NCBI GenBank assembly: GCA_000997385.1
Contig: LCBT01000003.1
Span: forward strand, 64,892-128,891
Reading direction: 5' to 3'
DNA length: 64,000 nt
Source of the DNA: Candidatus Daviesbacteria bacterium GW2011_GWA1_41_61
GTDB lineage: Bacteria; Patescibacteriota; Microgenomatia; Daviesbacterales; UBA10151
Part shown: positions 24,365-49,464 of the stretch, in pieces
Layout of the letters: every line of letters begins with the position of its first letter
Position numbering within the stretch: the stretch's first letter is position 1
Notes under the pieces: generated by a model
Databases searched by the model: none
Seen by the model: the letters and a program-made list of their open reading frames with translations, nothing else
What the model was told of the DNA's origin: nothing
Position numbers and translations under genes: made by a program

Positions 24365-25351
24365 TTATACTCTGTGGGCTTTGTGGTGTTTATGCTGCTC
24401 TTTGGCTAAAGTGCTCCAGTAAACTCCCAGTCCTATTAATAAGGCTCCTATGACAAAAGTAAACCTGATCTGTTCCCCTAAGAGTAGTATTCCTAAAGTG
24501 ACAGCAATAACAGGCTCTATATATTGAAAAAGATCGGCTTTGACTACCCCCAGCTTCCCTAAACCCCATTCAAATAAAAAATAAGCTGAGGTAGAAGACA
24601 AAACAGCAATATAAATAATACCAAAGATTCCCAGGAAAGTCATTTTTAAGGGCCAGCTGGGGTTTTGGAAGTACTCTACAGCAGCAGGAAGGGCAAAGGT
24701 GATCATTCCTACCAAAAAGACAATGGCAGTAATAGTTAAGGTAGAGTATTTTGTAAGCATCTTTTTAGACAGGATAGCTCCAGCCACCCAGGATATAGAA
24801 GCTAGAATGATTAACAGGTTGCCTAAAATAGCCTCTGAAAATAGGGAAGTCCCCAAAATATAGACAGGCAAGCCGATAACCAAAGCTGCTCCCAGCAAAC
24901 CCAGTAAGATGCCAAAAAGGTTAAAGGTATAGATCTTCTCTTTAAAAATCCACCAGGCAGTTAAAACGGAAACTACCGGAATAGTCATGGTCAGTACTGA
25001 GGCGGTGGTGGCGGTAGTTCTGGCTATTCCCAGATAAAAAAGGGCAATGTTTAAAGTAGACATTAAAGCTCCAATAGCAATCAGTTGAGGCAGGTCTTTT
25101 TTGCTGATCTTTAATTTATCCCTTTCTATTAATAAAAAAGGCAGTAGAAGCAGAGTAGCCAGGGTAAAACGGACAAAAGCCAAAGACATGGGGGGAACTT
25201 CTTGTAAGGTAACTTTGGCTACTACAAAGTTAATCCCCCAAATAGTATGAGCTGCCAAAACAGCTGCATAAGGCCAGGCAACAGTTACTAAATTTCTACT
25301 GCCAAGGTTAAAGTTTAACAATTTTTGAATTTTTAATACTGCTGTAGTCAT
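24365..25351 (-). CDS. EamA/DMT-family transporter
   Basis: Ten predicted TM helices and duplicated EamA-like halves. 4-bp overlap with hisS. Confidence 0.7.
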   Translation of the reverse strand: MTTAVLKIQKLLNFNLGSRNLVTVAWPYAAVLAAHTIWGINFVVAKVTLQEVPPMSLAFVRFTLATLLLLPFLLIERDKLKISKKDLPQLIAIGALMSTLNIALFYLGIARTTATTASVLTMTIPVVSVLTAWWIFKEKIYTFNLFGILLGLLGAALVIGLPVYILGTSLFSEAILGNLLIILASISWVAGAILSKKMLTKYSTLTITAIVFLVGMITFALPAAVEYFQNPSWPLKMTFLGIFGIIYIAVLSSTSAYFLFEWGLGKLGVVKADLFQYIEPVIAVTLGILLLGEQIRFTFVIGALLIGLGVYWSTLAKEQHKHHKAHRV

Positions 25352-26556
25352 CTTGAGTTAGAGAGTTTATCAACAACTTCAGGAAAGGAAAGCAAGACCT
25401 GAGACTTCAAAGTTAAATCTTTCAAAGCTATTTTTCCTGAAGTTGCTTCGTCGGGGCCAATAATGACAACATAAGGGATGCTTTTTTGATCAGCATATTT
25501 TAACTGTTTGTCCAGTTTGGAATCAGCATCTAACCAGAGTTCAGTATTAATATTGTTGGCCCGTAGTTTTTCAGCTACTTTTAAAGAATTAGCAAGATAA
25601 GTAGGGGAAAAAATTGTCACCAGGACTGAAGCTGAGGAGGAAGTTTCAAGCAAAATCCCTTGCTCCTTCAATACCTCTACAGTTCTGTCAAAACCTAAAC
25701 CAAAACCTACTGCCGGTAAGTTTTGTCCGGTAAAATTACCAATAAGGTTGTCCCATCTTCCTCCACTGCAAATTGACCCTGTACTGCCCTCCGCTACAGT
25801 CTCAAAGATCATGCCGGTATAGTAATCTAACCCTCTGGCCAGTGTTGGTTCATATTTGATCTTTTCCATATCTGTTCCCATTTGTTTTAAATGATCTAGG
25901 ATTTGTTGAAGGTTGGCGGTAAGGGGTTTGTTTTGCAGCGTCTTTAAAGCTTCCTGGGCCTCTTTTTCAACCATACCTTTTTGTACCATCTCTGAAAGGA
26001 CACCGCTTTCACCAATTTTTTCTAATTTATCAATAGCTGCCACATATTTTTTCTCTAAGCCCTCAAAGTTTATCCGGTCATTTATTTTAATGGTGATATT
26101 TAATCCTAGATTTTGGTAAATGTTTAGAACCAGGTTTATTATCTCTGCATCAGCCAAAGGAGATGAGGCACCAACAATATCCGCATCACATTGTAAAAAT
26201 TCCCGGTAACGTCCTTTTTGAGGGCTTTCTCCTCTCCAAACCGGCTGAGTCTGGTATCTTTTAAAAGGCTTTGCTAAGTTATGGTAAGAGGCCAAAACCC
26301 GGGCTAATGGTACAGTTTGATCATATCTTAAGGCCACTTCATCTCCGCCTCTAGTTTTAAACTCATAAATTAACTTTTCTTCTTCCCCGTATTTACCTTT
26401 TAAAACTGAAGCGTATTCTAAAGCCGGCGTTTCTAAGGGTTCAAAGCCGAAAAGACGGAACGTGGAGACTATTTTTTCCAAAACGTATCTTCGGGTATTG
26501 GCTTGCTCCGGCAAAAAATCCCGAAATCCTTTAACCGCTTGTAAAGGTTGTCCCAT
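25348..26556 (-). CDS. hisS: Histidine--tRNA ligase
   Basis: Class II motifs: motif 1 region KGFRDFLPE, HisA motif RGESPQKGRYREFLQCD, motif 3 GGRWDNL. C-terminal anticodon-binding domain. Confidence 0.9.
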   Translation of the reverse strand: MGQPLQAVKGFRDFLPEQANTRRYVLEKIVSTFRLFGFEPLETPALEYASVLKGKYGEEEKLIYEFKTRGGDEVALRYDQTVPLARVLASYHNLAKPFKRYQTQPVWRGESPQKGRYREFLQCDADIVGASSPLADAEIINLVLNIYQNLGLNITIKINDRINFEGLEKKYVAAIDKLEKIGESGVLSEMVQKGMVEKEAQEALKTLQNKPLTANLQQILDHLKQMGTDMEKIKYEPTLARGLDYYTGMIFETVAEGSTGSICSGGRWDNLIGNFTGQNLPAVGFGLGFDRTVEVLKEQGILLETSSSASVLVTIFSPTYLANSLKVAEKLRANNINTELWLDADSKLDKQLKYADQKSIPYVVIIGPDEATSGKIALKDLTLKSQVLLSFPEVVDKLSNSR

Positions 26557-32983: not shown

Positions 32984-34357
32984 TTATTGTGGAATAAATT
33001 TTGCACCCAGTTTTTTAGAGTACTCTTTAGCTTGTTCTCTGTTTCCATCTCCAACATAGACATTTACTCTTTTGCCCTCTCTCCTTAATTCTTCAGATGA
33101 GGAAAATAGCTTTATTATTTGCTTAGTGGTTTTGGGATTTGAGTGCAAAACACTGTCAACACCATTTTTGTCAGTCCAGTAATTCACAGAGAACTGTTTC
33201 TCTTTTGATTTGTTTAGTAAATTAAAAAACTCACTAACTCTTTCAAGTCCATATGCAAATCCAACGGCAGGAATTTGATATTCTTTCCCAGCTAAAAATT
33301 TGCTAACCAACTTATTGTACCTACCACCTCCAGCTACCTCCACGAAAACTTCTTTTCCAAATTTAAGATCAATTTCATATACTATTTCTGTATAATACTC
33401 ATGGCTTCTAATAACTGAGGGGTCTATGACACATTTTATACCTCGAGCCTGCAGAACCGAGGCAATGATATTTAAGTCGTTAACAGGTTTACTGTAACCA
33501 AGCAATTTTTCTGTTTGTTGGTCTAAAACGGTAACAAAAGTATTGCATACGATCTCCCACTTTTTCATTAGTTGATTAGAAGTATCAGTCCTTTTTATAA
33601 TTTCTATTACCTTATCAATCTCGGGTTGAAGTCTCTCCGGCTGTTTTCCTGCACGAGATTCGGCAATAGTGTCCAAACTGTTTTTAAGAACTAACCGTGT
33701 CCGTTCATCTATCTGTGATTCATCGCACAATAAATTAAAAAGTTCGACGCTACCTATTCGGACAGTAATTAATTCTCCAGGGACATTTATTGCTATAAAA
33801 CCTTCATAAAGTAAGAAAAGAATTTCTATATCCGAAAGCAGATTTGAAGTTCCTAGTATTTCGACCCCCACCTGGTTAAATTCTCTATTTTTCGTAACAG
33901 AAAGTTTAGAAATCAGTTCGTTTCTGAAACAAGGTGTTATATAGAAAACTTTGATTGGGAAAAAGTTTTTAACCTTCTTGTTTGTCGCAAGAACTTTAGC
34001 AAGCCACCGAGAAACAGAAATAGTTCCTTCCGGTATGAGGAGAGATGGAACCTGTTCAGGAATGATATTATAAGATTCATTGTAATCCTGAATATGCAAA
34101 TGAAACACCCCTCGCTTGTCCCATTCTGGCCACGGAGAACCACCGATCACTTGTTCACTAAAACTACTAGCTCTTTCGACTAGAGGGAAAACTATTTGCT
34201 CATAACTCCATTTTTGGAAAACCTCAGAGATTTTATGGGCAATAAAGTTTTTAACTCTCACCTCTTGTCCTACAATATCTCTAAAACCCCTTAACGGTTC
34301 ACGAATATTCTCGTCTTTAAATCGCTTATTCAACTTGATCCTATAGGCAGAATTCAC
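32984..34357 (-). CDS. HisRS-like class II aminoacyl-tRNA-synthetase paralogue 1 (457 aa), divergent motifs
   Basis: Motif 1-like LRGFRDIVG, motif 2 position CFRNE, motif 3 GGGRYNKL. Insertion domain and C-terminal anticodon-binding-like domain. Distinct from hisS at 25348..26556. Confidence 0.65.
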   Translation of the reverse strand: MNSAYRIKLNKRFKDENIREPLRGFRDIVGQEVRVKNFIAHKISEVFQKWSYEQIVFPLVERASSFSEQVIGGSPWPEWDKRGVFHLHIQDYNESYNIIPEQVPSLLIPEGTISVSRWLAKVLATNKKVKNFFPIKVFYITPCFRNELISKLSVTKNREFNQVGVEILGTSNLLSDIEILFLLYEGFIAINVPGELITVRIGSVELFNLLCDESQIDERTRLVLKNSLDTIAESRAGKQPERLQPEIDKVIEIIKRTDTSNQLMKKWEIVCNTFVTVLDQQTEKLLGYSKPVNDLNIIASVLQARGIKCVIDPSVIRSHEYYTEIVYEIDLKFGKEVFVEVAGGGRYNKLVSKFLAGKEYQIPAVGFAYGLERVSEFFNLLNKSKEKQFSVNYWTDKNGVDSVLHSNPKTTKQIIKLFSSSEELRREGKRVNVYVGDGNREQAKEYSKKLGAKFIPQ

Positions 34358-34426
34358 ATAGACAGCAGGCTCTTAACATGATATAGTAGGTCTCATTAAT
34401 AATCAATAAAGGAAAGTGATGAACTT

Positions 34427-35827
34427 ATGCATGAAAGAAAAGACGATATGAAAAGAAGATCAGATATACTTACCCCAGATGTATTAAGAAGGAAAGGGGT
34501 TATGAAGGGTTTTGAATACCTAACTCCCGAAAGGCGCGGGGCTGTTAGAGAGATGGAAAATAGATTCAAAATGGTAACTGAATCTTTTGGATTCAGAGAA
34601 GTAGAAGGACCATTACTCCAACCAATTGAATTCTATCAAGTCAAGTCAGGAGAAGAACTGTTAGCCCACACATATACCTTCGAAGATACAGATGGAAGTT
34701 TACTTGTTCTTAGGCCAGAACTTACTCCCACTGTCGCTTATATGATTGCAAAAGACGATGCCAGATTAAGCTTCCCTCTTAAGTGGTGGTCTAATCCTGA
34801 CTTATTTAGAAAAGAAAAACCTCAAAAAGGTAGAAAAAGGCAATTTAAACAGCTAAATGTTGACATTTTTGACCGTGCAGATTCGGGTAGAGATCGGTCT
34901 TTTGACGATGCCGAAGTTATTGCAGTGGCAATTTCCATATTTGAGTCCTTCGACCTAACAGAAAACGATATAGTGATGAGAATAAATAGCAGATCATTGG
35001 TTGAAAGACTGTTCGATATAGTAGATCTTGACAAGAATCGTAGATTTGACCTTTTATCTCTTATAGACAAATCAGCTAAAATTTCAGCTGAGGAATTTGG
35101 GACCAAAGTCGAAGAGATTGTTCCCCAAAAATTTTCTCGAGAGCTTTTGCAAAGATGGCTGTCAATAAAAAGTCTTGAGGAAGTTGCTGATAATAAACAG
35201 CTTAGTCCTCTAAGTCAGTCAAAAGAATATAAAGATCTAGCTAAGGTTTTTGAATTAATGAAGGCGTATGGGGTGTCAGAATACTGCGAGTTTTCTCCTT
35301 ATATCGTCAGAGGTCTTGGTTACTATACAGGATCAGTATTCGAAACATTTGATAGAAAACCAGAACATGGTTTTAGAAGAGCACTTATGGGTGGAGGAAG
35401 ATATGATAATCTTACGAAAGATGTAGGAGGAAGACTTGATATTACAGGGGTTGGTTTCGGGTTTGGAAATGTGCCTCTTGAAGAGATTCTATTATCGAGA
35501 AATATAGAGATTGTTCCCTCTGAATCTCGTGCAGATTATTGTATCGTTACACAGTCTGCCAACCAGCGAATCGATGCTATCACTCTTTCACAGAGATTAA
35601 GAAAGCAGGGTAAAAAAGTGATCTTGGATGATTCCATTTCTAAAGAGAAACCAGACAAGGTCTCAAAACAACTTTCTCGAGCCAATCAACTAAATTCTAA
35701 GTATTCTCTAATCATTTTTCCTGAAGAGTGGCAAGATAAAAAGGTGGTCATTAAAGATATGCAAAACGGAGAACAACAAATTATCGATATTAGTTCTTTA
35801 CTTGAAACCCAACCTAAATCTGACTAA
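34427..35827 (+). CDS. HisRS-like class II aminoacyl-tRNA-synthetase paralogue 2 (466 aa)
   Basis: Motif 1 MKGFEYLTPE, HisA-like FRKEKPQKGRKRQFKQLNVDIF, HisB-like GGGRYDNL, C-terminal anticodon-binding-like domain. Confidence 0.7.
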   Translation: MHERKDDMKRRSDILTPDVLRRKGVMKGFEYLTPERRGAVREMENRFKMVTESFGFREVEGPLLQPIEFYQVKSGEELLAHTYTFEDTDGSLLVLRPELTPTVAYMIAKDDARLSFPLKWWSNPDLFRKEKPQKGRKRQFKQLNVDIFDRADSGRDRSFDDAEVIAVAISIFESFDLTENDIVMRINSRSLVERLFDIVDLDKNRRFDLLSLIDKSAKISAEEFGTKVEEIVPQKFSRELLQRWLSIKSLEEVADNKQLSPLSQSKEYKDLAKVFELMKAYGVSEYCEFSPYIVRGLGYYTGSVFETFDRKPEHGFRRALMGGGRYDNLTKDVGGRLDITGVGFGFGNVPLEEILLSRNIEIVPSESRADYCIVTQSANQRIDAITLSQRLRKQGKKVILDDSISKEKPDKVSKQLSRANQLNSKYSLIIFPEEWQDKKVVIKDMQNGEQQIIDISSLLETQPKSD

Positions 35828-36856
35828 GTCATCTAAATACTCCCAAGAGTTAAAATTAATATCTTTCTTGTTTTTTTCTAAAATACCTAACGCCTGTATA
35901 CCCCTTTCTTTAAGCATTTTCTCACAATAAGAACGAGCACCAACCTTGGTAATTATTTCTCTTATAAGACTTGCTTCTTTTTGAGTCAAATCCGGCTTAC
36001 CTATATAATTTTTTAATATATTTTTTTCATCTTTATTAGCAAGCTCATAGCCTTTAACAACCAACAGGCTTTTAACCCCCATTCGCAAATCAACAATATT
36101 TGATTTCCCCGTAACCTTCTCGTTACCAAATACACCTTCTAAGTCGTCTTTCAATTGCGAAGCTGCACCCACAAGACGAGCGTATCTATTAAGACTGTTC
36201 ATAAGTTTTTGTGGAAGTCCTCCTAGAATAGCACCAACAGTGAGTGGTAATGAGTAGCAATATAGGGCCGCTTTATTTGTATACATCTCCCAAACCTGTT
36301 CATTTTTCATTTTTCCAAGTTCCCTCATTACAAAATCGAGGTCTGTCACCTGACCAATATTAGTTAGCTCATTAGTTTTAGATATAATGTTTAATGCTTC
36401 GATTTTTCTTTTTTGGGGATACGGAGAGTTCAGTATCATTTCAATTGCCCAAGACCACAGGAAGTCGCCAGCCAAAATAGCCAAATCATTGCCCATCTTC
36501 TCACTCTTGTTGAATTTTCTACTTTGAATATGAATAGTTGGTACATCGTTTTTGATATCATCCTGATCAATAATGTCATCATGAATAGCTAAATATTTGG
36601 TGAAAAAAGTTGTAAAGATTGAAGTATTAATTATGTTCTCTGTGATTTTATTCCCGGCAGCCATATATCCTACCAAAACTAGGGCAGGTCGGGGTTGTGT
36701 AATTTCTGCCAAGGTATATTTCCTAAGGAATTTAATTATTTCGGGTGTAATACCAAATTTTTTCCCTTGATATTGTTCTAGCTTGTGGTTGAAATAGGAC
36801 TCTAAAGCAATTCTAACTTGTGGACTATACTTTTCAATCACTTCCTTTACTTTCAT
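35798..36856 (-). CDS. trans-Isoprenyl diphosphate synthase-family protein (polyprenyl synthetase fold)
   Basis: First Asp-rich motif LAIHDDIIDQDD. Second motif region GAASQLKDDLEG is slightly degenerate. Confidence 0.7.
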   Translation of the reverse strand: MKVKEVIEKYSPQVRIALESYFNHKLEQYQGKKFGITPEIIKFLRKYTLAEITQPRPALVLVGYMAAGNKITENIINTSIFTTFFTKYLAIHDDIIDQDDIKNDVPTIHIQSRKFNKSEKMGNDLAILAGDFLWSWAIEMILNSPYPQKRKIEALNIISKTNELTNIGQVTDLDFVMRELGKMKNEQVWEMYTNKAALYCYSLPLTVGAILGGLPQKLMNSLNRYARLVGAASQLKDDLEGVFGNEKVTGKSNIVDLRMGVKSLLVVKGYELANKDEKNILKNYIGKPDLTQKEASLIREIITKVGARSYCEKMLKERGIQALGILEKNKKDINFNSWEYLDDLVRFRLGFK

Positions 36857-37064
36857 GGACCCATTTTACATTATAGTGGTGAAAATATAAATATTAGAGG
36901 TTTTATTTAAAGACTAATTAACCTCATCAAAAACAGTACTGCTCCAATTTTGTGTCAAGCGCCCCTTTTTATACTGATTTTGCAAACGAGAAGTGGTTAA
37001 AAATGTAGCCTAAATTGAGCTGGAGATTTTTTAAGGTGTTACGGTATGATCTATTTAGATTGAA

Positions 37065-37163
37065 GAAGCTTTAAGGTTAGGGGCCAAGGGCTATATTGTT
37101 AAATCAGACATTACCCCCAAAGATCTATTAGATAAAGTAGTAGAGCTCCTCAAAAAACCCTAA
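37065..37163 (+). repeat. 99 bp direct repeat, copy 2 (orphan copy of the response-regulator 3' end)
   Basis: Identical to 32854..32952. Not attached to a receiver-domain ORF. Confidence 0.85.
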
Positions 37164-37354
37164 GTTTACGTAGAGGCAGAAGATGTAATTTGTGCCAGTA
37201 TTTTTTCACCTCGGAGAGCTTAATTTTATGGTTGTCTCCTGGACCATAATTTATCATCCGCTCCAGTAGGAGTATTCTGCCTGCTTCACTTTTTTGCAGT
37301 TTTTTTTGGGTCGTAGTCCCAGACAAACATACTTCAACTATTATACAACATAGT

Positions 37355-37843
37355 TTAAGTATTAATCCTTATTCCAATCCTTATAAATAAATATCTTATT
37401 ACAACTGTTGGGTGTTTAAAAAATTCGTTAAAAATAACCTTTTTACTGATAGGGGGAACCTCTTTTTTGATAATTTGTTTATCTTGAGAGCGGGTGTCGT
37501 TAAGCAGTGTTAAGAGCTGTGGATCATGTAGTTTAGGGAGATTATTTGGGTAAAAGAAGGCCACGTCTTTTGATTCATTACTTGTTTGGGCAGATCCTGA
37601 GATAATTTGGCATTCAAAAAGATGATTAATCCTTTTAGAATTGTGATAACAATATTCCCCAACCTTTCTTTTTACTTTAGTTTGAAAACCGGATTCTTCC
37701 CAAACTTCTCTGACTACAGCTTGCTGGGGAGATTCTGATTTTTCTATCCTTCCTCCGGGTAAGACCCAAATAGGCACATCACGTCTTTTTACCATCAGGA
37801 CCTTTTTATCTTTATCAAAAACTATACCTATAGCTCCATCCAT
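37355..37843 (-). CDS. Nudix hydrolase
   Basis: Nudix box GGRIEKSESPQQAVVREVWEESGF. Confidence 0.75.
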   Translation of the reverse strand: MDGAIGIVFDKDKKVLMVKRRDVPIWVLPGGRIEKSESPQQAVVREVWEESGFQTKVKRKVGEYCYHNSKRINHLFECQIISGSAQTSNESKDVAFFYPNNLPKLHDPQLLTLLNDTRSQDKQIIKKEVPPISKKVIFNEFFKHPTVVIRYLFIRIGIRINT

Positions 37844-37857
37844 ATTATTATATCCCT

Positions 37858-38365
37858 ATGGACTTAAAGTCTTTCCAAATAGCCCAAGATTACCTAGGGA
37901 AAACAGTTAAAGTTAAAATAGATAGGCCTTTAGGGAGTAAACATCCTAAATGGGGTTTTTGAATATCCTTTAAACTATGGTTTTATTGAAGGAGTTTTAG
38001 CCCCAGATGGGGAAGAGTTTGATGTTTATGTTTTAAAAGTTAAGAAACATTTAGAGGAATTTACAGGAAAAGTGGTGGCTATAGTTCACCGTTTAGAAGA
38101 TGATGATGACAAGTTAGTGGTAATTCCAGAAGATTTAGATATCAAAGATACAGAGATAGAGAAAAGGTGGATTTTCAGGAAAAATGGACAAGTATACTTT
38201 GAATTTATTGATTATTATAAACCAACAAAGTTAAATTTAATTGAAATAGAAGGTCCAAATAATAAAATTATACAAACTTTAATTGATGAATTAGGGGATG
38301 AGGTTAAAGTTGTAGGTGAGGAAATTTTTTCTGTATTTGACAAGAAGAGGCTCAAAAAACCTTAA
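37858..38365 (+). pseudogene. ppa: Family I inorganic pyrophosphatase with a +1 frameshift in a T5 homopolymer (37956..37960)
   Basis: Frame A gives ..KIDRPLGSKHPKWGF* and frame B gives YPLNYGFIEGVLAPDGEEFDVYVL...LEDDDDKLVVIPED. Removing one T joins them into a full-length PPase of about 168 aa. Confidence 0.65.
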
Positions 38366-38394
38366 GATATTAACTGCTATAATGCCTTCAGGAT

Positions 38395-39369
38395 ATGTTT
38401 ATGGCAGAAAGTTCCTACAAAAAATTATTAGAAGTTTCCAGGATAGTTGGGTTACCGATAAAAAAGATTCTGGATATTCTCTATTATCTTGGCAGTGGTA
38501 AGAGGATATTAAATAACAACTTATTGCAAACAGTAGGAGTGTCTAGAAATGTTTTAAATCAGGTTAAACAACAGCTAGAAGAATTTTTTATCCAGAAGAG
38601 CCAATTTACTGTGTTATCTAATCAAGCTACTACTATAGCTAAAAAAATATTAGGGGAAAGTTATACCCCGGAAGAGAAATTGATAAACATATCTTTAGCT
38701 AAAAATACTCAGCTTTTATCACTCATATCCCATTCTCAACCTCAGCCTATCAGGGGATATGATCAATTCTTAGCCGATTCTGAGACGGTGGTTAAAAGAG
38801 CTGCTTTAATGGATTTTTTTGCTGATATTGAAGGGAAAAGAATCCTGTTTTTAGGAGATGATGATTTTACCTCTGTTGCTATTGCTTTTTATAGAAAAGC
38901 TCAGACAATTACTGTAGTAGATATCGATAAGAAAATTTTAGATGGTATTCAAGAAATTTCAGACAGCTCATCTTATCAAATTACGACCAAGCCGTATGAT
39001 GCTAGAGAAAAATTATCTCCAGAGTTGTCAGGAAAATATGACATTGTTTTTACTGATCCTCCTTATACGAGAGAAGGTATAAGCCTATTTTTATCTCGGG
39101 CTGTGCAGGCTTTAGATCCTACTAATCAGGCTGGGAGGATTTATTTTTGTTATGGTAACAGTGACAGAGCTAAGGAAAGATATTTACCCATTTATGAAGT
39201 TATTATTTCTTCAGGACTGATGATCAGATGGGTTTTTGATAAATTCAACCGTTACAGTGGGGCAGAGTCCATAGGCAGTGCCAGCAGTTTATTTATTTGT
39301 GATGTTACCCCCAAGACAAAACCAAAAATTACAGGAGAATATAAAGGAAATATTTATACAGAAAGGTAA
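38395..39369 (+). CDS. DUF43/BpsA C-terminal-domain-like protein (putative aminopropyl-/methyl-transferase) with N-terminal wHTH
   Basis: RILFLGDDDFTSVA, DIVFTDPPYT motif. Confidence 0.55.
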   Translation: MFMAESSYKKLLEVSRIVGLPIKKILDILYYLGSGKRILNNNLLQTVGVSRNVLNQVKQQLEEFFIQKSQFTVLSNQATTIAKKILGESYTPEEKLINISLAKNTQLLSLISHSQPQPIRGYDQFLADSETVVKRAALMDFFADIEGKRILFLGDDDFTSVAIAFYRKAQTITVVDIDKKILDGIQEISDSSSYQITTKPYDAREKLSPELSGKYDIVFTDPPYTREGISLFLSRAVQALDPTNQAGRIYFCYGNSDRAKERYLPIYEVIISSGLMIRWVFDKFNRYSGAESIGSASSLFICDVTPKTKPKITGEYKGNIYTER

Positions 39370-39371
39370 TG

Positions 39372-39500
39372 CTTTTTTAAAGATCTGATTTCTTGAAGTG
39401 TACCATACATTAATACTTGGTGGACAGTATCCGGTGATCTAATATCTGCTGTGGTTGAATACCACATACGCAGGTGGTTTTGTACCTCACAGCAGAGTAG
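39372..39500 (+). repeat. Repeat R2 (99 bp) fused to an XRE-tail remnant, copy 1
   Basis: 39372..39470 is identical to 51823..51921. 39471..39500 encodes QVVLYLTAE*, matching the 3' end of the XRE gene at 43941..43970. Confidence 0.75.
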
Positions 39501-39576
39501 GATCTAAAATATACATCTGTTAAGTATCCGATAGTGATATGTTGACAACTGATGTAGAATAAACTTATCTTAAGAT

Positions 39577-40698
39577 ATGGTTGAGAGTTATACTGACACT
39601 CCAATTTCATTGTCTCCAGTCATAAAAGCAGTCTCTGGTGGTTGTAACTTACGCTGTAATTACTGCTTTTATTCTGGTAATCAGCCAGAAATAAAAAGGA
39701 TGAGTGTTGACACCCTAGAAGCTCTTACTAAACATTTATTAGAGTCTCCATCGAAACATTTTAATTTTATTTGGCATGGCGGTGAGCCAATGCTATTAGG
39801 AATAGAATTTTATGAGAAAGCGTTAGAAGCACAAACGAGGTACAAAAGATCAGATCAAGATATCCGTAATTCTCTCCAAACGAATGCTACTCTTATCAAT
39901 CAGGGATGGGTAGACTTTTTTAAAAGAAATAGTTTTGGTGTAGGAGTAAGTATTGATGGTCCTGCTGAGCTTCATGATTTAGTGAGGGTACAGACCGATG
40001 GAAGGGGGTCTTATGATCAAGTGGTATCAGGAATCAATCAATTGAAGGCAGCTAATATTTCCTTTGGTGGGATAGCGGTCGTAAATAGGATAACTGTCAA
40101 CCATCCAGAGACTATGTTTGCTTTTATCAAAGATGGAGGAATACCAATGGCTTTAAATCGGTGTAATGCTAACACTGATGATCCGGAAGAGGTTAGAAAA
40201 TTAGCGGTTGGTCCAGCTGAGTATAACGCATTTTTATTAAAGATATTTGATCTATGGATCAATGAAAATAATCCAGCGATCAAAATCCGTCCTCTTGATG
40301 AATTAGTTAGGGCAACCTTAGGCTATCATACAGAGAGTTGTAGCTTTTTAGGCCAGTGCGAAAGATATTTTACAGTTGATTTTAATGGCGATGTGTATCC
40401 TTGTGATGAGTTCCTTAATGATAGGTATCTATTGGGGAATATTAAAAGACAGGCAGTAAATGAGCTTTGGCAAGGTGGGGATTTTAGAAGATACTATTTA
40501 GGAAGGCGTGGTGTAATTATTAACTGTGAGGGGTGTGAGTGGATGGATGTGTGCAATGGCGGATGTATAAGAGATTGGGAAGGATCTAAAGGTATGTTTA
40601 ACCCGAAAGAAATTAGCTTTTGTGAAGCAAAAAGGTCGTTATTTCAAACTATAAAATTAAGATTGTCAGAGTTGGGATATACTAGAGGTATAATCTAA
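39577..40698 (+). CDS. Radical SAM/SPASM-domain enzyme (anSME-like peptide-modifying maturase), cassette 1
   Basis: CNLRCNYC radical SAM cluster motif, GGEP. C-terminal SPASM cysteines (CSFLGQC..CDEF...CEGCEWMDVCNGGC). Confidence 0.85.
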   Translation: MVESYTDTPISLSPVIKAVSGGCNLRCNYCFYSGNQPEIKRMSVDTLEALTKHLLESPSKHFNFIWHGGEPMLLGIEFYEKALEAQTRYKRSDQDIRNSLQTNATLINQGWVDFFKRNSFGVGVSIDGPAELHDLVRVQTDGRGSYDQVVSGINQLKAANISFGGIAVVNRITVNHPETMFAFIKDGGIPMALNRCNANTDDPEEVRKLAVGPAEYNAFLLKIFDLWINENNPAIKIRPLDELVRATLGYHTESCSFLGQCERYFTVDFNGDVYPCDEFLNDRYLLGNIKRQAVNELWQGGDFRRYYLGRRGVIINCEGCEWMDVCNGGCIRDWEGSKGMFNPKEISFCEAKRSLFQTIKLRLSELGYTRGII

Positions 40699-40723
40699 TT
40701 ATAAAAGAAAGAAGGTGAAAAAT

Positions 40724-40957
40724 ATGCTAAGAGAAGCAGAAACGGCAGCATCTACTGACGCAGAAACATTAGATCTAACAGCTGTTGTACCTGTTGAACC
40801 GGTAGAGCGAAGTGTCAGAGAACCAAACTTGGTCATTGAAGAGGTGCTAAAAGGATCTAAGAAGCTTATTACACTTTGGTCGGGAGATCATAGCGATCAT
40901 GTAGATGTTAACTTTCCTTATGGTGACTATGCTGATAGATGGAGTGATAAAGCTTAA
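40724..40957 (+). CDS. Small acidic precursor-like peptide (77 aa), cassette 1
   Basis: GAAGGTG ribosome-binding site. Helical acidic N-terminal region. C-terminal core WSGDHSDHVDVNFPYGDYADRWSDKA with repeated aromatic/His-x-Asp triplets. Confidence 0.5.
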   Translation: MLREAETAASTDAETLDLTAVVPVEPVERSVREPNLVIEEVLKGSKKLITLWSGDHSDHVDVNFPYGDYADRWSDKA

Positions 40958-41046
40958 AACTTTATCAATATTATATAATCAGTATTAAAGTATTTAGCAT
41001 CTTAGGGTATTATATATTTTCATAAAACGGAAGTTTATTTTGAGTA

Positions 41047-42033
41047 ATGACTATTAAATTTCAGATTTCTGAAACAGCTAATTTTTGGCATTTTGTGTCA
41101 AACTTAGTTAGTTGGCATGATAGTGTCAGGCTCTATTATAGAGATTATTGGTTAGATCAAACAGGTGATTTTACAGAAATAGAGGAAAAATGTTTAGAAA
41201 AGTTGAAAGACTTTTTCAAAAAGTATACATATGGGGAGAATTACTGGGGCAAAGTTTTTTTACTAGGAAATAATAATGTTTGGGAAAAAGCCGGGCAAAA
41301 ATTTACTGCATCTGAGATTGAATTATTAAAAGAGGCTTCGGAAGTTTTTTACCGTCGTTTTAGAAAAATTTGGGATATTGATCAGCATTTATTGAAAGTT
41401 TGGAAAATACGTTTAGAAAAGACTAGTAAAAGGTTTGTGACAGAGTCCCTTATTCAGGATTTGGATGTATTTTTTAATTACAAACAACCCCTAAAAAGCG
41501 TCACAGTTTTTCTTCTAATGTGTGAGAAAAGAAATGATCCGGCAGGGGGAGGAGCAAATTTAGGTAAAGGATATCTTACTTTGGAGGTCTCAAGAGCTGA
41601 TTATGATGCTATAAGGCCAGCCTGGCTACTATTTTGGCATGAACTGACACACAACCTCTGGCAGGAAGATAGCTCTACCTACCAACAATTAAGAAGAGAC
41701 TTCTCTGATCAAATGAAGAATGAAGGTTTAGACGGGAAAATTCTGCAAATACCTACTTCCAGGATTATTAATGAGGTAGTGGTTGATTCACTTTTCCCTA
41801 AGGGTTATCTTGCCAAGAAACATTTCGACTTTCCAGTTGAGTTAATTTTTAATCGTTTCGGGGAAGGTTCTAAAAAGCGGTTTAAGGTGGAGGATTGGCA
41901 TTACTATTTTGCCTATACTTTAAAGGATTTAGCTAAAGATTATATAGAAAATGGGAAGGCTATTGATATGGATTTTTTTAAAGAGATAAAAAAACAATAC
42001 ATAAGATTTTCTAAAGATTTCAGGAGAAGCTAA
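41047..42033 (+). CDS. HExxH-motif protein (putative Zn metallopeptidase), cassette 1
   Basis: WHELTHNLW. No other recognised domains. Confidence 0.45.
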   Translation: MTIKFQISETANFWHFVSNLVSWHDSVRLYYRDYWLDQTGDFTEIEEKCLEKLKDFFKKYTYGENYWGKVFLLGNNNVWEKAGQKFTASEIELLKEASEVFYRRFRKIWDIDQHLLKVWKIRLEKTSKRFVTESLIQDLDVFFNYKQPLKSVTVFLLMCEKRNDPAGGGANLGKGYLTLEVSRADYDAIRPAWLLFWHELTHNLWQEDSSTYQQLRRDFSDQMKNEGLDGKILQIPTSRIINEVVVDSLFPKGYLAKKHFDFPVELIFNRFGEGSKKRFKVEDWHYYFAYTLKDLAKDYIENGKAIDMDFFKEIKKQYIRFSKDFRRS

Positions 42034-42262
42034 TAAATCTTTAAAATTTTAACTATCACTGGTCCTCCTGGGGAGAGGTATTCTATTTCTTCACCAACTT
42101 TATGGAAAAGGATAGCTTGAGCTAGGGGAGCTTGAGGTGAGATATAAGTTACATCTTTTTTTAAAGGTTGATCAGTTTTTAAGCGATACAAATTTTTAAA
42201 GCAACACAGAAGCAATTTATTATCCATGAAAAAAGTTTATCAACTGGGGAAGCATCTGTGAC

Positions 42263-42751
42263 ATGAAAGTAACAAGTGTTTATATAATTGTTCAAAATAA
42301 GTTAAACAAGATATTACTTTCTAAAAGAGCAGATATTCCTCTTTGGGTTCTTCCAGGTGGGCATGTAGAGGAAAATGAGCTAGCTGAAGTTGCTGCCTTA
42401 AGGGAGTTTCATGAAGAAACAGGTTTGAAGACAAGAATAAAAACAACTATAGCATGTTACAAAAATATAGGGAGTAGGAGTAGGAAATATCTCTTTTTAG
42501 GAGAACTAACTGGAGGGAAAAAAACTCTTTCAAACGAGACTGTTGCCTTAAAGTGGGTAGATCTAAACCACTTACCTTCCCCTATGACGATTTATGAAAG
42601 AAGGAAGATCGAGGACTTTATTAATTACAGAAACAAAATTATTATAAGGGAGGACAAAATTAATATGATAGGGGAAATTTTAAGCCAGATTAAAAATCCT
42701 ATTATATTCGGATATCTGCTTTATCGGTTAATAAAATTGTTAATTTTTTAA
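42263..42751 (+). CDS. Nudix hydrolase
   Basis: Nudix box LPGGHVEENELAEVAALREFHEETGL. Confidence 0.75.
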   Translation: MKVTSVYIIVQNKLNKILLSKRADIPLWVLPGGHVEENELAEVAALREFHEETGLKTRIKTTIACYKNIGSRSRKYLFLGELTGGKKTLSNETVALKWVDLNHLPSPMTIYERRKIEDFINYRNKIIIREDKINMIGEILSQIKNPIIFGYLLYRLIKLLIF

Positions 42752-42782
42752 AAAAATACGTTTAAATTTAAAGTTTAAAAAT

Positions 42783-43148
42783 ATGAGTAATCATTGTCCG
42801 GAACGAATGTTAGAATACTATACTGCCGCACAAAATGCTTACAGTAATTGGGGTAGAGATCTAAAAAGACCTGCTCTATATGCTCTTCATAGTGGTTTTT
42901 TGCCAGAAGGACAAAATCTATCACATTTTTCTGTGCAAAACTACATGGAGATGGCTTTCTCTGATAAAGTTTTTGATCGAATTATTTTTTGTGAGAGTTT
43001 TTCCCATGCAACTAATAAGCCAAGGACGATATCGGAAGCGAGGAGGTTGTTAAAAAATGGCGGAATGATGATTATTGCTGACTGTTTTGTCAGTAGGGGG
43101 GATTTAACCAATGATCAACTATTACAAGTGAGGCGAATGGAGGTTTAG
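42783..43148 (+). pseudogene. C-terminal fragment of a class I SAM-dependent methyltransferase
   Basis: Has post-motif-I elements (DRIIFCESFSHA, LLKNGGMMIIADCF) but no GxGxG SAM-binding N-terminus. Confidence 0.45.
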
Positions 43149-43163
43149 TATATTATTTTGTGA

Positions 43164-43970
43164 GTGCAGAGAGAGTGTAATACACTTTTTAGCCAATTTA
43201 TGTTAACAGCTACTTTAGGAAGGTTAATTAAAGATCATAGATTAAGAAAAAGGCTTTCACAGCTGGAAATTTCTTTAAGGATAGGTTGGAGGGATACCAC
43301 CAGGTTATCTAAGATAGAGCAGGGAAGGGTGGGGAAACCTCTTAGGAAGACAGTAGATAAGATCATGGAGGCTCTAGATTTAAATAAGCAGGAAAGAGGA
43401 GAGTTTTTACTAGTTGGAGGATATCTACCCACAGATGAGGAAATTAAAAAGGTTATCAAACTGGTAAAAGAAAGAATAAACACTTGGCCTTACCCAGCCT
43501 ATTTGTTAGATTTCTCCTGGAGAGTTCTGTGTCTTAATCAACATACTATTGATATCTTTAAGTTACCTTCTGCTCTAAAGAGCATTTCTTTTAAAAAAGC
43601 TCCAAATCTACTGGAATTCCTTTTTTCTCCCAAGGAGGTTCTACCGGTTAAAATAGAAAAAGGTGATGATGACAAATCAGTCCAACCTTTCCCGATAGCA
43701 CAAGTTGCTCAATTTAAAGTAGAGCAAAATGGCAGGGATAATGAGAAGTGGTATAAAGATTTAATCAAAAAGTTGATGCAAAATGAGCAATTCCGTCAGG
43801 TTTGGCCCAAAGTAGATCCCAAACAGTATCACAAAAAGTTGTTAGATTATGAATATAAAGTAATTACTTGGCCAGACAAAAGTCACAAAACCTTTAGGTT
43901 TCATATTTTCACCTCCAGATTAATCCAAGACCAAAGGTTCCAGGTGGTATTATACCTCACAGCAGAGTAG
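43164..43970 (+). CDS. XRE-family HTH regulator with C-terminal domain
   Basis: HTH LSQLEISLRIGWRDTTRLSKIEQG. Its last about 29 codons (43884..43970) form the gene-tail repeat found at four other sites. Confidence 0.65.
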   Translation: MQRECNTLFSQFMLTATLGRLIKDHRLRKRLSQLEISLRIGWRDTTRLSKIEQGRVGKPLRKTVDKIMEALDLNKQERGEFLLVGGYLPTDEEIKKVIKLVKERINTWPYPAYLLDFSWRVLCLNQHTIDIFKLPSALKSISFKKAPNLLEFLFSPKEVLPVKIEKGDDDKSVQPFPIAQVAQFKVEQNGRDNEKWYKDLIKKLMQNEQFRQVWPKVDPKQYHKKLLDYEYKVITWPDKSHKTFRFHIFTSRLIQDQRFQVVLYLTAE

Positions 43971-44144
43971 AGTATTAAAATTTAACGTCAAATATTTGAT
44001 AGAAGAATCTTGCTAAATCATTCAAGAGAGATAAAAGGGGATAAAATTCCCATTAAAATCTTAACACTCTATCATATAGGGACTATAAACATTTCAAGTG
44101 CTTAATGTATGTCTGTATACCCAACTAACTCCAGTTTGCAACTT

Positions 44145-44654
44145 TTAGGTGGAAATGAGTTGAAAACTATCAGTTAAAAGTGTACTCATCTCTTTCTGGT
44201 AAAGGTAGATGTTTTCAAAGAAGTTTAAACAGGATTCTTTGAATTTAGGGAAAGTGTCATAGTATTGGTTGTAGGTAACTTTCTGATGAAACAGTCTCCA
44301 TAACCTCTCAATCAAGTTTAAATTGGGTGAATATGGTGGCAGGAATTTAGGGATTAACCTTGGATGGTATCTTAGATAGTTTTGGACCTGTCTTGAGTAG
44401 TAATACCTGGCATTGTCCCAAATCAGATAAATCCTGCCTGTTGGGTGCTTTTCTAATAGTTGGTCCAGCAGATTGATGGTGGAAGTTGAGTTAATCCTTA
44501 AATCTTCCCTGATGATTACATCATGGGTTTTAGCATTTAAGGCCCCATTTAAGTTTAACCTGTCCCTGCCTGTATTAGACTTAATTAGTTTATCAGTCCC
44601 CTTTAGTATCCAACCATACGAAGGTCTGGTATTATGCTGGGGATGAGTTTGCAT
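44145..44654 (-). CDS. IS630-family transposase DDE-domain ORF (+1 frame relative to orfA)
   Basis: LIWDNARYYYS, LPPYSPNLNLIERLW. 23 nt overlap with orfA. Confidence 0.7.
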   Translation of the reverse strand: MQTHPQHNTRPSYGWILKGTDKLIKSNTGRDRLNLNGALNAKTHDVIIREDLRINSTSTINLLDQLLEKHPTGRIYLIWDNARYYYSRQVQNYLRYHPRLIPKFLPPYSPNLNLIERLWRLFHQKVTYNQYYDTFPKFKESCLNFFENIYLYQKEMSTLLTDSFQLIST

Positions 44655-45174
44655 CCAGGAAGTAGATCTGGTCAGCTGCTTCTAACTGATTTTTAAGTTT
44701 TAAGTACTCATCTAAAAAGGCTCGCTGTTTGTCTAAATCAGCTTTGGCTGGTACAAGCTTGGGTTTCTTGTAGACAAAGCCTAACCTGTGGAGGAGTTTA
44801 GTCATACCAATAACTGAGTATTTAATGTGATATGTGGATTTAATATACCGGGCTACTTCTTTAGCTGTTAAGTAAATATGCTCACCTTCTGCTAAATGGT
44901 TTTTGAGTTCCAGCTCTTGGGTTTTGGTAAGTCTTGGATGACCACCAGTGTAGTGGAACTGCAATAATCCACTCAGTCCCTCTTGCTTAAAACTTTTAAC
45001 ATATCTCCTGATGGTTGTCTCGTCTAAAAGCAGTGCAGCAATTATCTGGGGATATGTGAAGCCTCTATGAACCATGAGTATGGCTTTGATTCTATCAGCC
45101 AACCTTTTGTCTCTTACCTGTTTATGTGCCTTTCTCAAAACCAGCACTTCTTCTTCAGTTAAAATTTCGGGCAT
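44632..45174 (-). CDS. IS630-family transposase N-terminal (HTH) ORF
   Basis: Helix-turn-helix region and HYTGGHPRL. Confidence 0.7.
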   Translation of the reverse strand: MPEILTEEEVLVLRKAHKQVRDKRLADRIKAILMVHRGFTYPQIIAALLLDETTIRRYVKSFKQEGLSGLLQFHYTGGHPRLTKTQELELKNHLAEGEHIYLTAKEVARYIKSTYHIKYSVIGMTKLLHRLGFVYKKPKLVPAKADLDKQRAFLDEYLKLKNQLEAADQIYFLDANSSPA

Positions 45175-45255
45175 TAACTATTATGGGATCACACTTTTAC
45201 CCTACTTGTCAAATTTTAGGTTGCAAACTCATTGAAGATTGGTATATGTACTCCT

Positions 45256-45528
45256 TTAGGTACATACAATGACACAATTGCAGTTACAATTAAAACAGCC
45301 AGCATCACAATCACAGCTGCCTGCATAATCTATACCTCTATCTGTTCTTCCCAGTGCCTGGACGAATGGTTGAGTAAAAATAGATTCAAATTCCATAGTT
45401 CGTCTCTGACTTTGCAATTGGGTTTGTTCCGCTAACAGTTGGTTAGCTGCAAATTCATATTTTGGTGTTAACTGCTCATTTTGCAATTGGGCTTGTTCCA
45501 AAGATTCGTTCTCGACTTCCCGCAACAT
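45256..45528 (-). CDS. Cys/Asp/Asn-rich precursor-like peptide (90 aa), cassette 2
   Basis: GGAAGGAGG ribosome-binding site 8 nt before the ATG. N-terminus MLREVE.. resembles cassette 1 peptide (MLREAE..). C-terminal core GSCDCDAGCFNCNCNCVIVCT. Confidence 0.6.
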   Translation of the reverse strand: MLREVENESLEQAQLQNEQLTPKYEFAANQLLAEQTQLQSQRRTMEFESIFTQPFVQALGRTDRGIDYAGSCDCDAGCFNCNCNCVIVCT

Positions 45529-45564
45529 TAAAATCACCTCCTTCCGATATTATTATCTTAGCAT

Positions 45565-46287
45565 TTAGTTAATTTGCTTTATAACTTCTAGAAAATCCTT
45601 GTTGTAGACATGCCTAAATTTTTTATAAAAGATTATATTATTACATCTATCACCCAGTGACGACAGAAAATATAAAAGTTGAAGTTTGCCATATTTTTTA
45701 ATTAAGTAACTTACTGCTCTCCAACTGTGCCAATAGCCCTGTATAGATGGTTTGGCTACATTCTTACTCCATTGTTTTGATGTTCCTAGCAAGAAAATCG
45801 TCCGGGGGTTAAAATTGATACTAAAGTTACTAGCTAAGTTTATCTGGCCAGCAACAAAACAGGCCAAACCCTCATCAAACCATTGCGGTCTATAACCTTT
45901 ATGTATTGCACTGGTAAATAAGTGGGCAATCTCATGGCAAAGGATCTTTTTAAACTCATTTTTATTATGATTACTCACTTTCTCAAATACTTCCGGGCTA
46001 AATATACAAATCTGGCTTTGGGTCGATGGGTCAGCACGACCTACCAGCCAGGGTGGAGTTTTATGGCCAGATAGATCATCCATTTCTTGGCGTGTATATA
46101 ATAAAACCAAATCGACTCCATCAATTTCCCTTTTGAAGAACTTCACATTTCTTCTGTAACATTGCTGCAACATTTTTTTTACTTCACCTATAAAATTGTC
46201 ATCAAATGAATAATAGATTGTACCTTTGGCGGTAGTACTTAAGCTGAAAAGCTCTCTTTTTTTGTTTTTAATCATTAATTGTCTCAT
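45565..46287 (-). CDS. HExxH-motif protein (putative Zn metallopeptidase), cassette 2
   Basis: CHEIAHLF. Lies between the radical SAM gene and the peptide. Confidence 0.5.
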   Translation of the reverse strand: MRQLMIKNKKRELFSLSTTAKGTIYYSFDDNFIGEVKKMLQQCYRRNVKFFKREIDGVDLVLLYTRQEMDDLSGHKTPPWLVGRADPSTQSQICIFSPEVFEKVSNHNKNEFKKILCHEIAHLFTSAIHKGYRPQWFDEGLACFVAGQINLASNFSINFNPRTIFLLGTSKQWSKNVAKPSIQGYWHSWRAVSYLIKKYGKLQLLYFLSSLGDRCNNIIFYKKFRHVYNKDFLEVIKQIN

Positions 46288-47647: not shown

Positions 47648-47864
47648 AATCTTTTCCTGGGCTTCTACGCGAATACTATCATTAATAAATGGTACTGTCA
47701 AAAATTTTGGTTTAACACCAGCAGGGGACAATACCAGAAATTATCAGCAGCAATGAATGGTATTTGATAGTTGTATTTTGACAAACATGGAGATGTTATG
47801 TTATTAGTAAGGATGTAATTTAAGAAGGAAGAAAGAGTAGCTAATTTGATGTTAATTTAAAAAG

Positions 47865-49244: not shown

Positions 49245-49248
49245 TATT

Positions 49249-49464
49249 GTGAGCAAAGAAAACTCAGTTGGTTTATTAGATATACAAGTTGTTGCTGAGA
49301 GTGAGATGACTGCACCTAAGCAAGTGGATACCACTAAGGCTTATGGAATAGTTCCTATGTTTAATAATGTGGGTGGTGCGGTTGAAGGTGATATATTCCA
49401 GTATGATGATGGTGGTTGTTATGATGGCCCAGAATGCGATGAATGCGATCCTTCTCCGTTGTAA
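49249..49464 (+). CDS. Cys/Asp-rich precursor-like peptide (71 aa), cassette 3
   Basis: GTG start with an AGGAGG ribosome-binding site at a 7 nt spacer. C-terminal core DIFQYDDGGCYDGPECDECDPSPL. Confidence 0.55.
   Translation: MSKENSVGLLDIQVVAESEMTAPKQVDTTKAYGIVPMFNNVGGAVEGDIFQYDDGGCYDGPECDECDPSPL

Follow-up and report, generated by a model that had tools for sequence, protein, structure and literature searches.

A second histidyl-tRNA synthetase gene paired with a HisRS-like paralogue in a Daviesbacteria genome

A 2022 review of aminoacyl-tRNA synthetase duplications records no functional duplicate of histidyl-tRNA synthetase (HisRS) and gives HisZ as the only HisRS paralogue, a protein that has no adenylation activity, acts together with HisG and is without the anticodon-binding domain (PMC9437257). 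The only other functional HisRS duplicate that we found in the literature belongs to the histidine decarboxylase (hdc) cluster: lactobacilli carry an extra hisS (hisRS2) in this mobile cluster, for which its authors propose protection of the His-tRNA pool in an auxotroph (PMC4122935, PMC5313534). This article describes a further extra HisRS gene, referred to here as P1, in Candidatus Daviesbacteria bacterium GW2011_GWA1_41_61 (assembly GCA_000997385.1). P1 lies within a 64,000-nucleotide stretch (contig LCBT01000003.1, positions 64,892 to 128,891 of the forward strand), which as a whole is called the window below.

By analogy, P1 may be likened to hisRS2 as a second, catalytically intact HisRS on an acquired island beside a histidine-consuming pathway in a histidine auxotroph, the auxotrophy of the host being assumed from what is general among bacteria of the Candidate Phyla Radiation (CPR). 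However, the organisms are unrelated, and the neighbours of hisRS2 are hdcA, hdcB and hdcP, whereas those of P1 are a HisRS-like paralogue, P2, and a polyprenyl-synthase-like gene. Moreover, hisRS2 has a His T-box leader, whereas none was found for P1, whose spacer to P2 is only 69 bp; a search of the window with Rfam for T-box or other leader RNAs found only tRNA-Leu.

Other described systems provide partial parallels. Cluster-encoded synthetases, including IleRS2/MupM, protect against their cognate inhibitors. IleRS2 is such a resistant copy, acting against mupirocin (PMC9437257). Copies of this type and P1 are alike in being second copies of housekeeping synthetases found with accessory or biosynthetic genes; however, no natural product directed against HisRS is known. 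As in pathway-linked accessory synthetases generally, P1 is a second intact copy beside a housekeeping gene (P3, see below) and is located on a low-GC stretch with a transposase. The closest analogues of P2, though not of P1, are the SerRS-like amino acid:carrier-protein ligases, PoxA and MshC, in which, as in P2, a synthetase core (of class II or class I) keeps its adenylation site intact while its acceptor recognition is altered (PMC9437257). P2 differs from these in its descent from HisRS and in having a second HisRS-family gene beside it in nearly every case. HisZ is likewise a HisRS paralogue, and the NCBI pipeline names P2-family proteins accordingly, but both P1 and P2 keep their catalytic residues, score under the HisZ cutoffs and have no hisG nearby.

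The P1 gene and its identity as a HisRS

Searching the window with P1 (tblastn) recovers two further HisRS-family copies, P2 and P3, to which P1 is 26% and 27% identical, respectively. P3 is located in the higher-GC backbone, 8 kb upstream of P1; it shares 60-82% of its residues with HisRS proteins annotated in Candidatus Daviesbacteria and Levybacteria, and is a member of a dense clade of these proteins, which marks the organism as a Daviesbacteria-like member of the CPR (Microgenomates). Because P3 is the canonical, inherited housekeeping hisS, P1 is an extra copy, and P1 as the housekeeping enzyme of this genome was rejected. A preliminary description of this DNA, made from the sequence alone, had recognized P1 as a HisRS paralogue, which the presence of a canonical hisS in the same window bears out.

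The open reading frame (ORF) of P1 encodes 466 amino acids (aa) from an ATG start, with a Shine-Dalgarno-like AGGAAAG 10 nt 5' of it. The protein matches the Pfam families tRNA-synt_His (PF13393; 123.6 bits, E = 1.3e-35, cutoff 25) and HGTP_anticodon (PF03129; 31.8 bits, E = 1.7e-07, cutoff 21). In a PDB sequence search, its closest relative is the HisRS of Thermoplasma acidophilum (1wu7, 5e-58), with that of Trypanosoma cruzi (3hrk) at 1e-54 and that of E. coli far weaker at 2e-27. The comparison of an AlphaFold model with HisRS that the preliminary description had proposed was carried out: the model, based on a 64-sequence alignment (predicted local distance difference test score, pLDDT, 91.2; predicted template modelling score, pTM, 0.85), superposes over its full length on 3hrk with bound histidyl-adenylate (template modelling score, TM, 0.81/0.91; 2.7 Å), and its top 50 structural matches comprise 50 HisRS and no HisZ.

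The archaeal and trypanosomal enzymes 1wu7 and 3hrk are therefore the best matches of P1 by both sequence and structure (TM up to 0.91 over about 434 columns). Common to P1 and both of them are the LRPE-TPT segment, the motif-2 loop, the HisA and HisB signatures, and a motif 3 that reads GFGxG followed by a residue other than Arg. However, P1 is only 28-32% identical to them by structural alignment, and it has an N-terminal extension, GFEY in place of G-x-RD, and insertions at aa 153-157 and 401-405. It also differs from them in being an extra copy coupled to P2 and not the cell's only HisRS.

Residue conservation was read from an alignment of 67 sequences, including 17 proteins of the P1 clade, with an E. 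coli HisRS sequence identical to 1KMM as the reference for numbering; motif names and E. coli residue numbers follow general usage in the HisRS literature. The class II core is intact in motifs 1 and 2, as P62, R128 and E130 are invariant, and the equivalents of E83, T85, R113, E115, Q118, R121, R123, Q127, R259, Y263, Y264, G286, R287 and Y288 are kept in 17/17 clade members. The catalytic Arg and Glu residues, whose loss would by the preliminary description have refuted its reading, are thus retained in every member aligned. The equivalent of position 131 is Asp in the P1 clade, as in every group examined except E. coli. The motif-2 loop of P1, FRKEKPQKGRKRQF, has its Q, R and R in all 17 members and K or R at position 116 in 14 of them. 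In the Thermus thermophilus HisRS-tRNA complex, the residues equivalent to this loop touch G-1, C74 and A76 (PMC4357726), and P1 keeps the equivalents of the residues making these contacts.

The C-terminal part is also complete. Members of the P1 clade have 108-126 residues after motif 3, hairpin included, as in canonical HisRS, and K443 and Q450 of P1, which are invariant in the clade, are the counterparts of K397 and Q404 in the T. thermophilus enzyme, where these two residues read G36 and U35 of the GUG anticodon. An alpha/beta domain resembling the anticodon-binding domain had been proposed for this region, in agreement with the PF03129 match, the confident model and these two residues.

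The three sequence strings that the preliminary description quoted are all present in the ORF (KGFEYLTPE at aa 27-35, FRKEKPQKGRKRQF at aa 127-140 and GGGRYDNL at aa 322-329), but the names attached to them require revision (Table 1). KGFEYLTPE, taken there for motif 1, is the N-terminal HisRS signature, and motif 1 is FGFREVEGPLLQPIE. FRKEKPQKGRKRQF does belong to motif 2, but the HisA signature placed within it is VRGLGYYTG. GGGRYDNL is the HisB signature as stated, but it is not motif 3, which is GVGFGFGNVPLEE. Motif 3 had been described as kept; its canonical form is in fact absent, with Pro where E. coli has Arg311.

P1 is also distinct from HisZ. It scores 153.1 bits on the HisZ model TIGR00443 against a cutoff of 271.65, falls far under the cutoff of all subfamily NF0089xx models, and shows weak HisZ similarity on PF21996 (17 bits). 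It keeps the adenylation residues and a full anticodon-binding domain, both of which are lost in HisZ, and tblastn with E. coli queries found no homologue of HisG or HisD in the window and 53 related loci (752 kb in total). On the basis of model scores, conserved residues, fold matches and the absence of hisG and hisD from these 752 kb, the identification of P1 as HisZ was rejected, and the preliminary description was right to set P1 apart from HisZ-type paralogues; a grouping with HisZ, the other outcome that it had named as refuting, was not seen.

Overall, as judged from alignment and model, P1 is a complete class IIa HisRS with the fold, residues and domains of a working enzyme, and it is probably a second, non-HisZ, histidine-activating enzyme that is catalytically competent. 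The core of the earlier claim of such an enzyme stands on the residues kept in 17/17 members, the fold and the anticodon-binding domain; its motif labels and its account of motif 3 do not, and it had missed the gene context.

The P2 family and its association with HisRS genes

P2, which lies head-to-head with P1, scores 181 bits on the NCBIfam hisS model TIGR00442; its best PDB match is only 4e-14, and no Pfam match to an anticodon domain was found in it. The P2 family keeps all of the HisRS adenylation residues, including the motif-2 and motif-3 arginines (E110, T112, R145, Q162, E166, R317, Y321/322, GGGR(Y) and R373 are invariant). It is further characterized by a longer and different motif-2 loop, an SPWPEW signature, conserved insertion-domain residues and a small C-terminal domain. 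The P2 model (pLDDT 92.9) matches HisRS cores, with the C-terminal domain packed differently. From its conserved residues and predicted structure, P2 is predicted to be a HisRS-like adenylating enzyme, with the adenylation site intact and the tRNA-binding elements remodelled.

The family is rare, with 64 representatives at E <= 1e-30 among 1.84 billion clusters at 50% identity and 37 loci among 185,579 GTDB species. Its hosts are several CPR lineages, Actinomycetota (Nocardiopsis, Sphaerisporangium, Frankia, Kitasatospora and a Streptomyces plasmid), Bacillota (Carnobacterium and Risungbinella), Planctomycetota and Acidobacteriota. Its usual name at NCBI, "ATP phosphoribosyltransferase regulatory subunit", is a HisZ-type name and looks like a misannotation. 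P2-type domains are found in fusion proteins (P0371 and P0372, of 1116-1118 aa; P0201; P0362) with a PP-binding carrier domain (Carnobacterium), with GNAT plus ATP-grasp domains, and with S-adenosylmethionine (SAM) methyltransferases, and these fusions point to a role in the assembly of small molecules or peptides. No free-standing carrier proteins were found near P2 in the loci examined. Literature searches for the P2 family, for HisRS-like biosynthetic enzymes and for HisRS self-resistance gave GCN2, HisZ and the hisS of the hdc cluster as the only relevant entries; neither the family nor its pairing with HisRS genes was found described in the searchable literature.

Gene context was tallied over 34 non-redundant contexts with an intact P2 gene, among which five Nocardiopsis loci come from related species and are not independent. 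A full-length HisRS-family gene is located within about 3 kb of P2 in 30 of the 34 contexts (CPR, Actinomycetota, Bacillota and Planctomycetota), and a homologue of the window's polyprenyl synthase is near P2 in 18. Around ordinary HisRS genes, neither a P2-like nor a polyprenyl-synthase neighbour was seen (0/80 in each case); these 80 control loci (504 kb) were taken from a metagenome scan and comprise 79 ordinary HisRS and one solo member of the P1 clade. P2, a HisRS-family gene and often a polyprenyl synthase therefore constitute a rare module moving between phyla. The other neighbours of P2 vary and include methyltransferases, radical SAM proteins, APH kinases, major facilitator superfamily (MFS) and ATP-binding cassette (ABC) exporters, GNATs, amidohydrolases, AMP-binding enzymes and HIT proteins.

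The polyprenyl synthase of the window, convergent with P1, is itself divergent. It is under every NCBIfam cutoff for farnesyl and geranylgeranyl diphosphate synthases (FPPS/GGPPS; best 154 vs 450), and its second Asp-rich motif is DDxxG and not DDxxD, as it is in the Carnobacterium copy. None of P1, P2 and the polyprenyl synthase matched the PADLOC defence models, and promoter-like matches in the spacer between P2 and P1 are no commoner than chance.

The HisRS-family partners of P2 are not all of one kind. In a neighbour-joining tree, the only type of tree made, 21 partners from all of the phyla except Microgenomates form a clade of their own (bootstrap 96) apart from P1. The members of this main partner clade keep all of the catalytic residues and the acceptor-binding motif-2 loop, and score 307-324 bits, above the hisS cutoff. 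The Parcubacteria partner is a full-length, canonical-type HisRS. By its placement in this tree, P1 is an independent, non-orthologous recruit to the partner position beside P2, and such independent recruitment makes what P2 needs nearby look like HisRS chemistry and not one specific protein.

P1 belongs to a distinct accessory HisRS clade. At 90% identity this clade comprises about 31 clusters, with scores of 347-831 bits, after which there is a sharp drop to ordinary HisRS at <=264 bits. In the same tree, this clade is monophyletic (bootstrap 100) and nested within an ordinary archaeal-like HisRS group (bootstrap 100). Members at <=54% identity stand alone, some of them beside SerRS, Lys/AspRS or TyrRS genes, which suggests that the clade descends from a translational HisRS lineage. 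Members that are at least about 51% identical and have a P2 homologue on the same contig are paired with P2. The pair is seen directly in three further loci (L003, L015 and L016) in the same arrangement as in the window, with pair identities of 51-80%, and about 12 more pairs are indicated by contigs of equal size in the P1 and P2 hit lists. The distances of P2 and its partner co-vary in both the P1 subclade (r = 0.96) and the main clade (r = 0.82; Mantel p <= 5e-4 for each), which fits inheritance as a unit.

In two CPR loci, the module has a tRNA-His(GUG) gene with G-1 and C73 about 100 nt away, at L010 7816-7888, upstream of P2, and at L016 1510-1585, upstream of the polyprenyl synthase. 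tRNA genes are common sites of island integration, and this arrangement is only suggestive: it might reflect either a functional link or an integration site. In addition, two CPR relatives have a DDAH-like (pentein-fold) gene directly 3' of P2 in an apparent shared operon (L015 5315-8579; L016 5553-6341), and in L015 a gene of the histidine/phenylalanine ammonia-lyase type (Lyase_aromatic, 624 bits) lies three genes away. The window has neither a DDAH-like nor a Lyase_aromatic gene.

Table 1. Positions of P1, its motifs and the associated features in the window
Feature	Position	Strand	Basis
P3, canonical housekeeping hisS, 402 aa, outside the module	25348..26556	-	TIGR00442, 392.1 bits vs 286.75
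P2, HisRS-like paralogue, 457 aa, head-to-head with P1	32984..34357	-	ORF, models, family alignment
Low-GC stretch, 0.32-0.385 vs flanks 0.40-0.45 (approximate bounds)	33000..54000	.	Composition, gene content
P2-P1 shared intergenic region, 69 bp between opposite-strand start codons	34358..34426	.	Sequence; divergent promoters presumed
P1, accessory full-length HisRS, archaeal/trypanosomal-like subtype	34427..35827	+	ORF, Pfam, NCBIfam, PDB, AlphaFold model
P1 class II motif 1, FGFREVEGPLLQPIE, aa 54-68	34586..34630	+	Pro62 invariant in two alignments
P1 motif 2 and loop, FRKEKPQKGRKRQFKQLNVDIF, aa 127-148	34805..34870	+	R113, E115, Q118, R121, R123, Q127, D(E131) equivalents
P1 HisA VRGLGYYTG, aa 294-302, and HisB GGGRYDNL, aa 322-329 (histidine pocket)	35306..35413	+	R259, Y263, Y264, G286, R287, Y288 equivalents, 17/17
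P1 motif 3, GVGFGFGNVPLEE, aa 341-353	35447..35485	+	Pro350 replaces class II motif-3 Arg, 17/17
P1 C-terminal alpha/beta anticodon-binding domain, about aa 366-461, with hairpin PEEWQDKKVVIKDMQNGEQ, aa 432-450	35522..35809	+	PF03129; model pLDDT >90
Divergent polyprenyl-synthase-like gene, 352 aa, convergent with P1, 30-bp overlap at the P1 3' end	35798..36856	-	PF00348, 122 bits

Possible functions of P1

Taken together, the predicted structure and the gene context lead us to hold, with moderate confidence, that P1 is a His-tRNA(His) synthetase dedicated to the module, i.e., an accessory copy. P1 would bind histidine and ATP, make histidyl-adenylate and pass the histidine to tRNA(His), with its canonical motif-2 loop reading the G-1:C73 acceptor end and its complete C-terminal domain reading the GUG anticodon. 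Inherited as a unit with P2 and the divergent polyprenyl synthase, it most likely would give the module its own capacity to make His-tRNA(His), which might serve as an input to the pathway or, in an auxotroph whose histidine P2 drains, sustain translation. P2, for its part, may consume histidine, as its invariant adenylation site and its fusions to PP-binding, GNAT plus ATP-grasp and methyltransferase domains suggest, and a P2 pathway that requires activated histidine, or competes for it, may be what keeps P1 in place. The roles offered in the preliminary description (a resistance copy, tRNA-dependent biosynthesis, or carrier/lipid aminoacylation) are possible, and are made concrete by this gene context.

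Several observations weigh against a dedicated tRNA(His)-charging role. On the hisS model TIGR00442, P1 scores 281.7 bits (E = 9.6e-84), which is 5 bits under the curated cutoff of 286.75, and its orthologue in L003 is also under this cutoff at 279.7 bits; this shortfall is attributable to divergence and not to the loss of any HisRS feature tested. P1 lacks the motif-3 Arg (E. coli R311), with Pro350 in its place in all 17 clade members. Val or Pro is found at this position in the closest group of ordinary HisRS, and the solved 1wu7 (GFGMGD) and 3hrk (GFGFGD) are likewise without Arg in motif 3. Because these solved relatives share the absence, it is best regarded as a trait of the subtype, and the missing Arg was rejected as a sign of inactivity. 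The P1 clade also departs from ordinary HisRS in its N-terminal signature, where GFEY replaces GTRD, in its N-terminal extension and in the insertions at aa 153-157 and 401-405.

Gene context raises further difficulties for this role. At four loci, an intact P2 gene lacks a partner within 6 kb, and a linked HisRS is therefore not obligatory. The C-terminal domains of the main partner clade are mostly 59-95 residues long and without the anticodon hairpin, whereas P1 has both the length and the hairpin; for truncated partners of this kind, a specialized biosynthetic subunit fits better than a translation back-up, and the job of P1 may differ from theirs. Finally, in the syntenic relative L003 the P2/P1 pair sits where the window has P3, between RF1/L31 and lactamase_B/DnaB (L003 8548-11353 vs window 24365-27830). 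Identity between L003 and the window is 42-61% for the backbone genes, 63% for P2 and 61% for P1, and no P3 homologue was seen in the 21-kb L003 locus. As the pair fills the slot of P3 there, a P1-type protein may be the only HisRS in some genomes.

An alternative explanation is self-resistance, in which the P2 module would make a histidyl-adenylate-like or other HisRS-targeting compound and P1 would be an insensitive HisRS that keeps translation running in the producer. The existence of a full-length second copy, predicted to be catalytically intact, beside a housekeeping HisRS is what one would expect in such a case, as are the mobile settings of the module (the low-GC stretch with a transposase here, an integrase/Rep region in Carnobacterium and a plasmid in Streptomyces) and the recurrence of ABC/MFS exporters, APH-type kinases and HIT proteins as neighbours. 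The filling of the partner role by different HisRS lineages and the substitutions that mark the P1 clade close to the N-terminal signature and beyond motif 2 point in the same direction. However, the truncated anticodon-binding domains of most other partners are ill-suited to the rescue of translation, and four clusters are without a partner. We know of no natural HisRS inhibitor of this kind, and our literature search found neither a natural HisRS-directed inhibitor nor a case of HisRS self-resistance. On balance, this explanation is unlikely.

Class II synthetases are obligate dimers, and P1 and P2 might form a heteromeric complex in which P1 brings tRNA(His) or another acceptor to the active site of P2, with ordinary charging being secondary. 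P1 and P2 are tightly adjacent, and in other phyla the two genes overlap as if translationally coupled (L014 11127/11130). The main partner clade is monophyletic, has diverged along with P2 (r = 0.82), and retains the acceptor-binding motif-2 loop but no longer the anticodon hairpin; in addition, a tRNA-His gene abuts two modules. For the truncated partners elsewhere, which would be specialized pathway components, the direct-partner model is a serious one. For P1 itself, however, we consider it improbable: P1 is not orthologous to the main partners, so a specific interface would have had to evolve twice, P1 has every feature of a stand-alone HisRS, and some P2 genes have no partner at all.

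Plain redundancy would make P1 an acquired spare HisRS, or the true main enzyme, whose position beside P2 is meaningless. The solo members of the P1 clade in housekeeping contexts and the many unrelated genes in the low-GC stretch would agree with this. Yet at least four sequenced loci and about 12 inferred ones retain the P2/P1 pair (51-80% identity), which changes its genomic slot as a pair, and the pairing of P2 with a HisRS in 30/34 contexts contrasts with 0/80 in the controls, which together render redundancy very unlikely. A last alternative, that P1 is a non-catalytic histidine sensor controlling another enzyme, e.g., the polyprenyl synthase, as HisZ does HisG, can draw on the weak similarity to the HisZ models (TIGR00443 and PF21996) and on the diphosphate-using enzyme adjoining P1, but it is effectively excluded by scores under every HisZ cutoff, by structural matches that are all HisRS, by the retained catalytic arginines, motif-2 loop and full anticodon-binding domain, and by the absence of HisG and HisD homologues from the window and the 53 related loci.

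The surrounding low-GC stretch and wider significance

Besides P2, P1 and the polyprenyl synthase, the low-GC stretch contains genes for an MmyB-like regulator and an IS630-type transposase, three radical SAM/SPASM genes, a BpsA_C-like gene and two NUDIX genes. From its composition and gene content, we infer that it is a horizontally acquired island. The transposase (44145-45174, -) consists of two overlapping ORFs, a helix-turn-helix (HTH) part and a DDE_3 part, and similar DDE_3/HTH ORFs flank the Planctomycetota module L014. The three radical SAM/SPASM genes are maturase-like (39577-40698, +; 46268-47731, -; 47865-49244, +), the first reaching 316 bits where the anaerobic sulfatase maturase model has its cutoff at 349, and they may belong to a pathway of the type that makes ribosomally synthesized and post-translationally modified peptides. 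One of the NUDIX genes (37355-37843, -, and 42263-42751, +) lies just past the polyprenyl synthase; for both, the best NCBIfam matches are MutT-like Nudix hydrolases, all under cutoff.

In the window, an RF1-like ORF (23001-23888, -; 295 aa) has the PET tripeptide and is without the GGQ motif. Relative to its homologue in L003 (...HASSQGGQNVQKVSTAVRL...), about 18 aa spanning the GGQ loop are deleted in frame. No other release-factor homologue is present in the window. This ORF could be a degenerate RF1 or an assembly artefact.

The module indicates an uncharacterised pathway built on histidine activation. It contributes two novelties, the P2 family and a distinct accessory HisRS clade, of which we judge the P2 family to be the more important. 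P2 occurs in genome-reduced CPR bacteria and Planctomycetota, and also in Nocardiopsis, on Streptomyces plasmids and in Carnobacterium, and the cultivable ones among its hosts make the pathway directly testable. Furthermore, the P1 locus would provide a second example of a dedicated synthetase coupled to a pathway competing with it for the same amino acid.

Finally, a more far-reaching possibility may be put forward tentatively, namely that P2, its HisRS partner and the polyprenyl synthase constitute a new tRNA(His)-linked biosynthetic machine, in which a HisRS-derived pair, possibly a heterodimer, histidylates a non-tRNA acceptor that could be polyprenyl-linked, a peptide or carrier-bound. 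If this were true, the outcome would be histidine-containing metabolites or envelope modifications of an unknown class, spread horizontally from CPR bacteria to actinomycetes.

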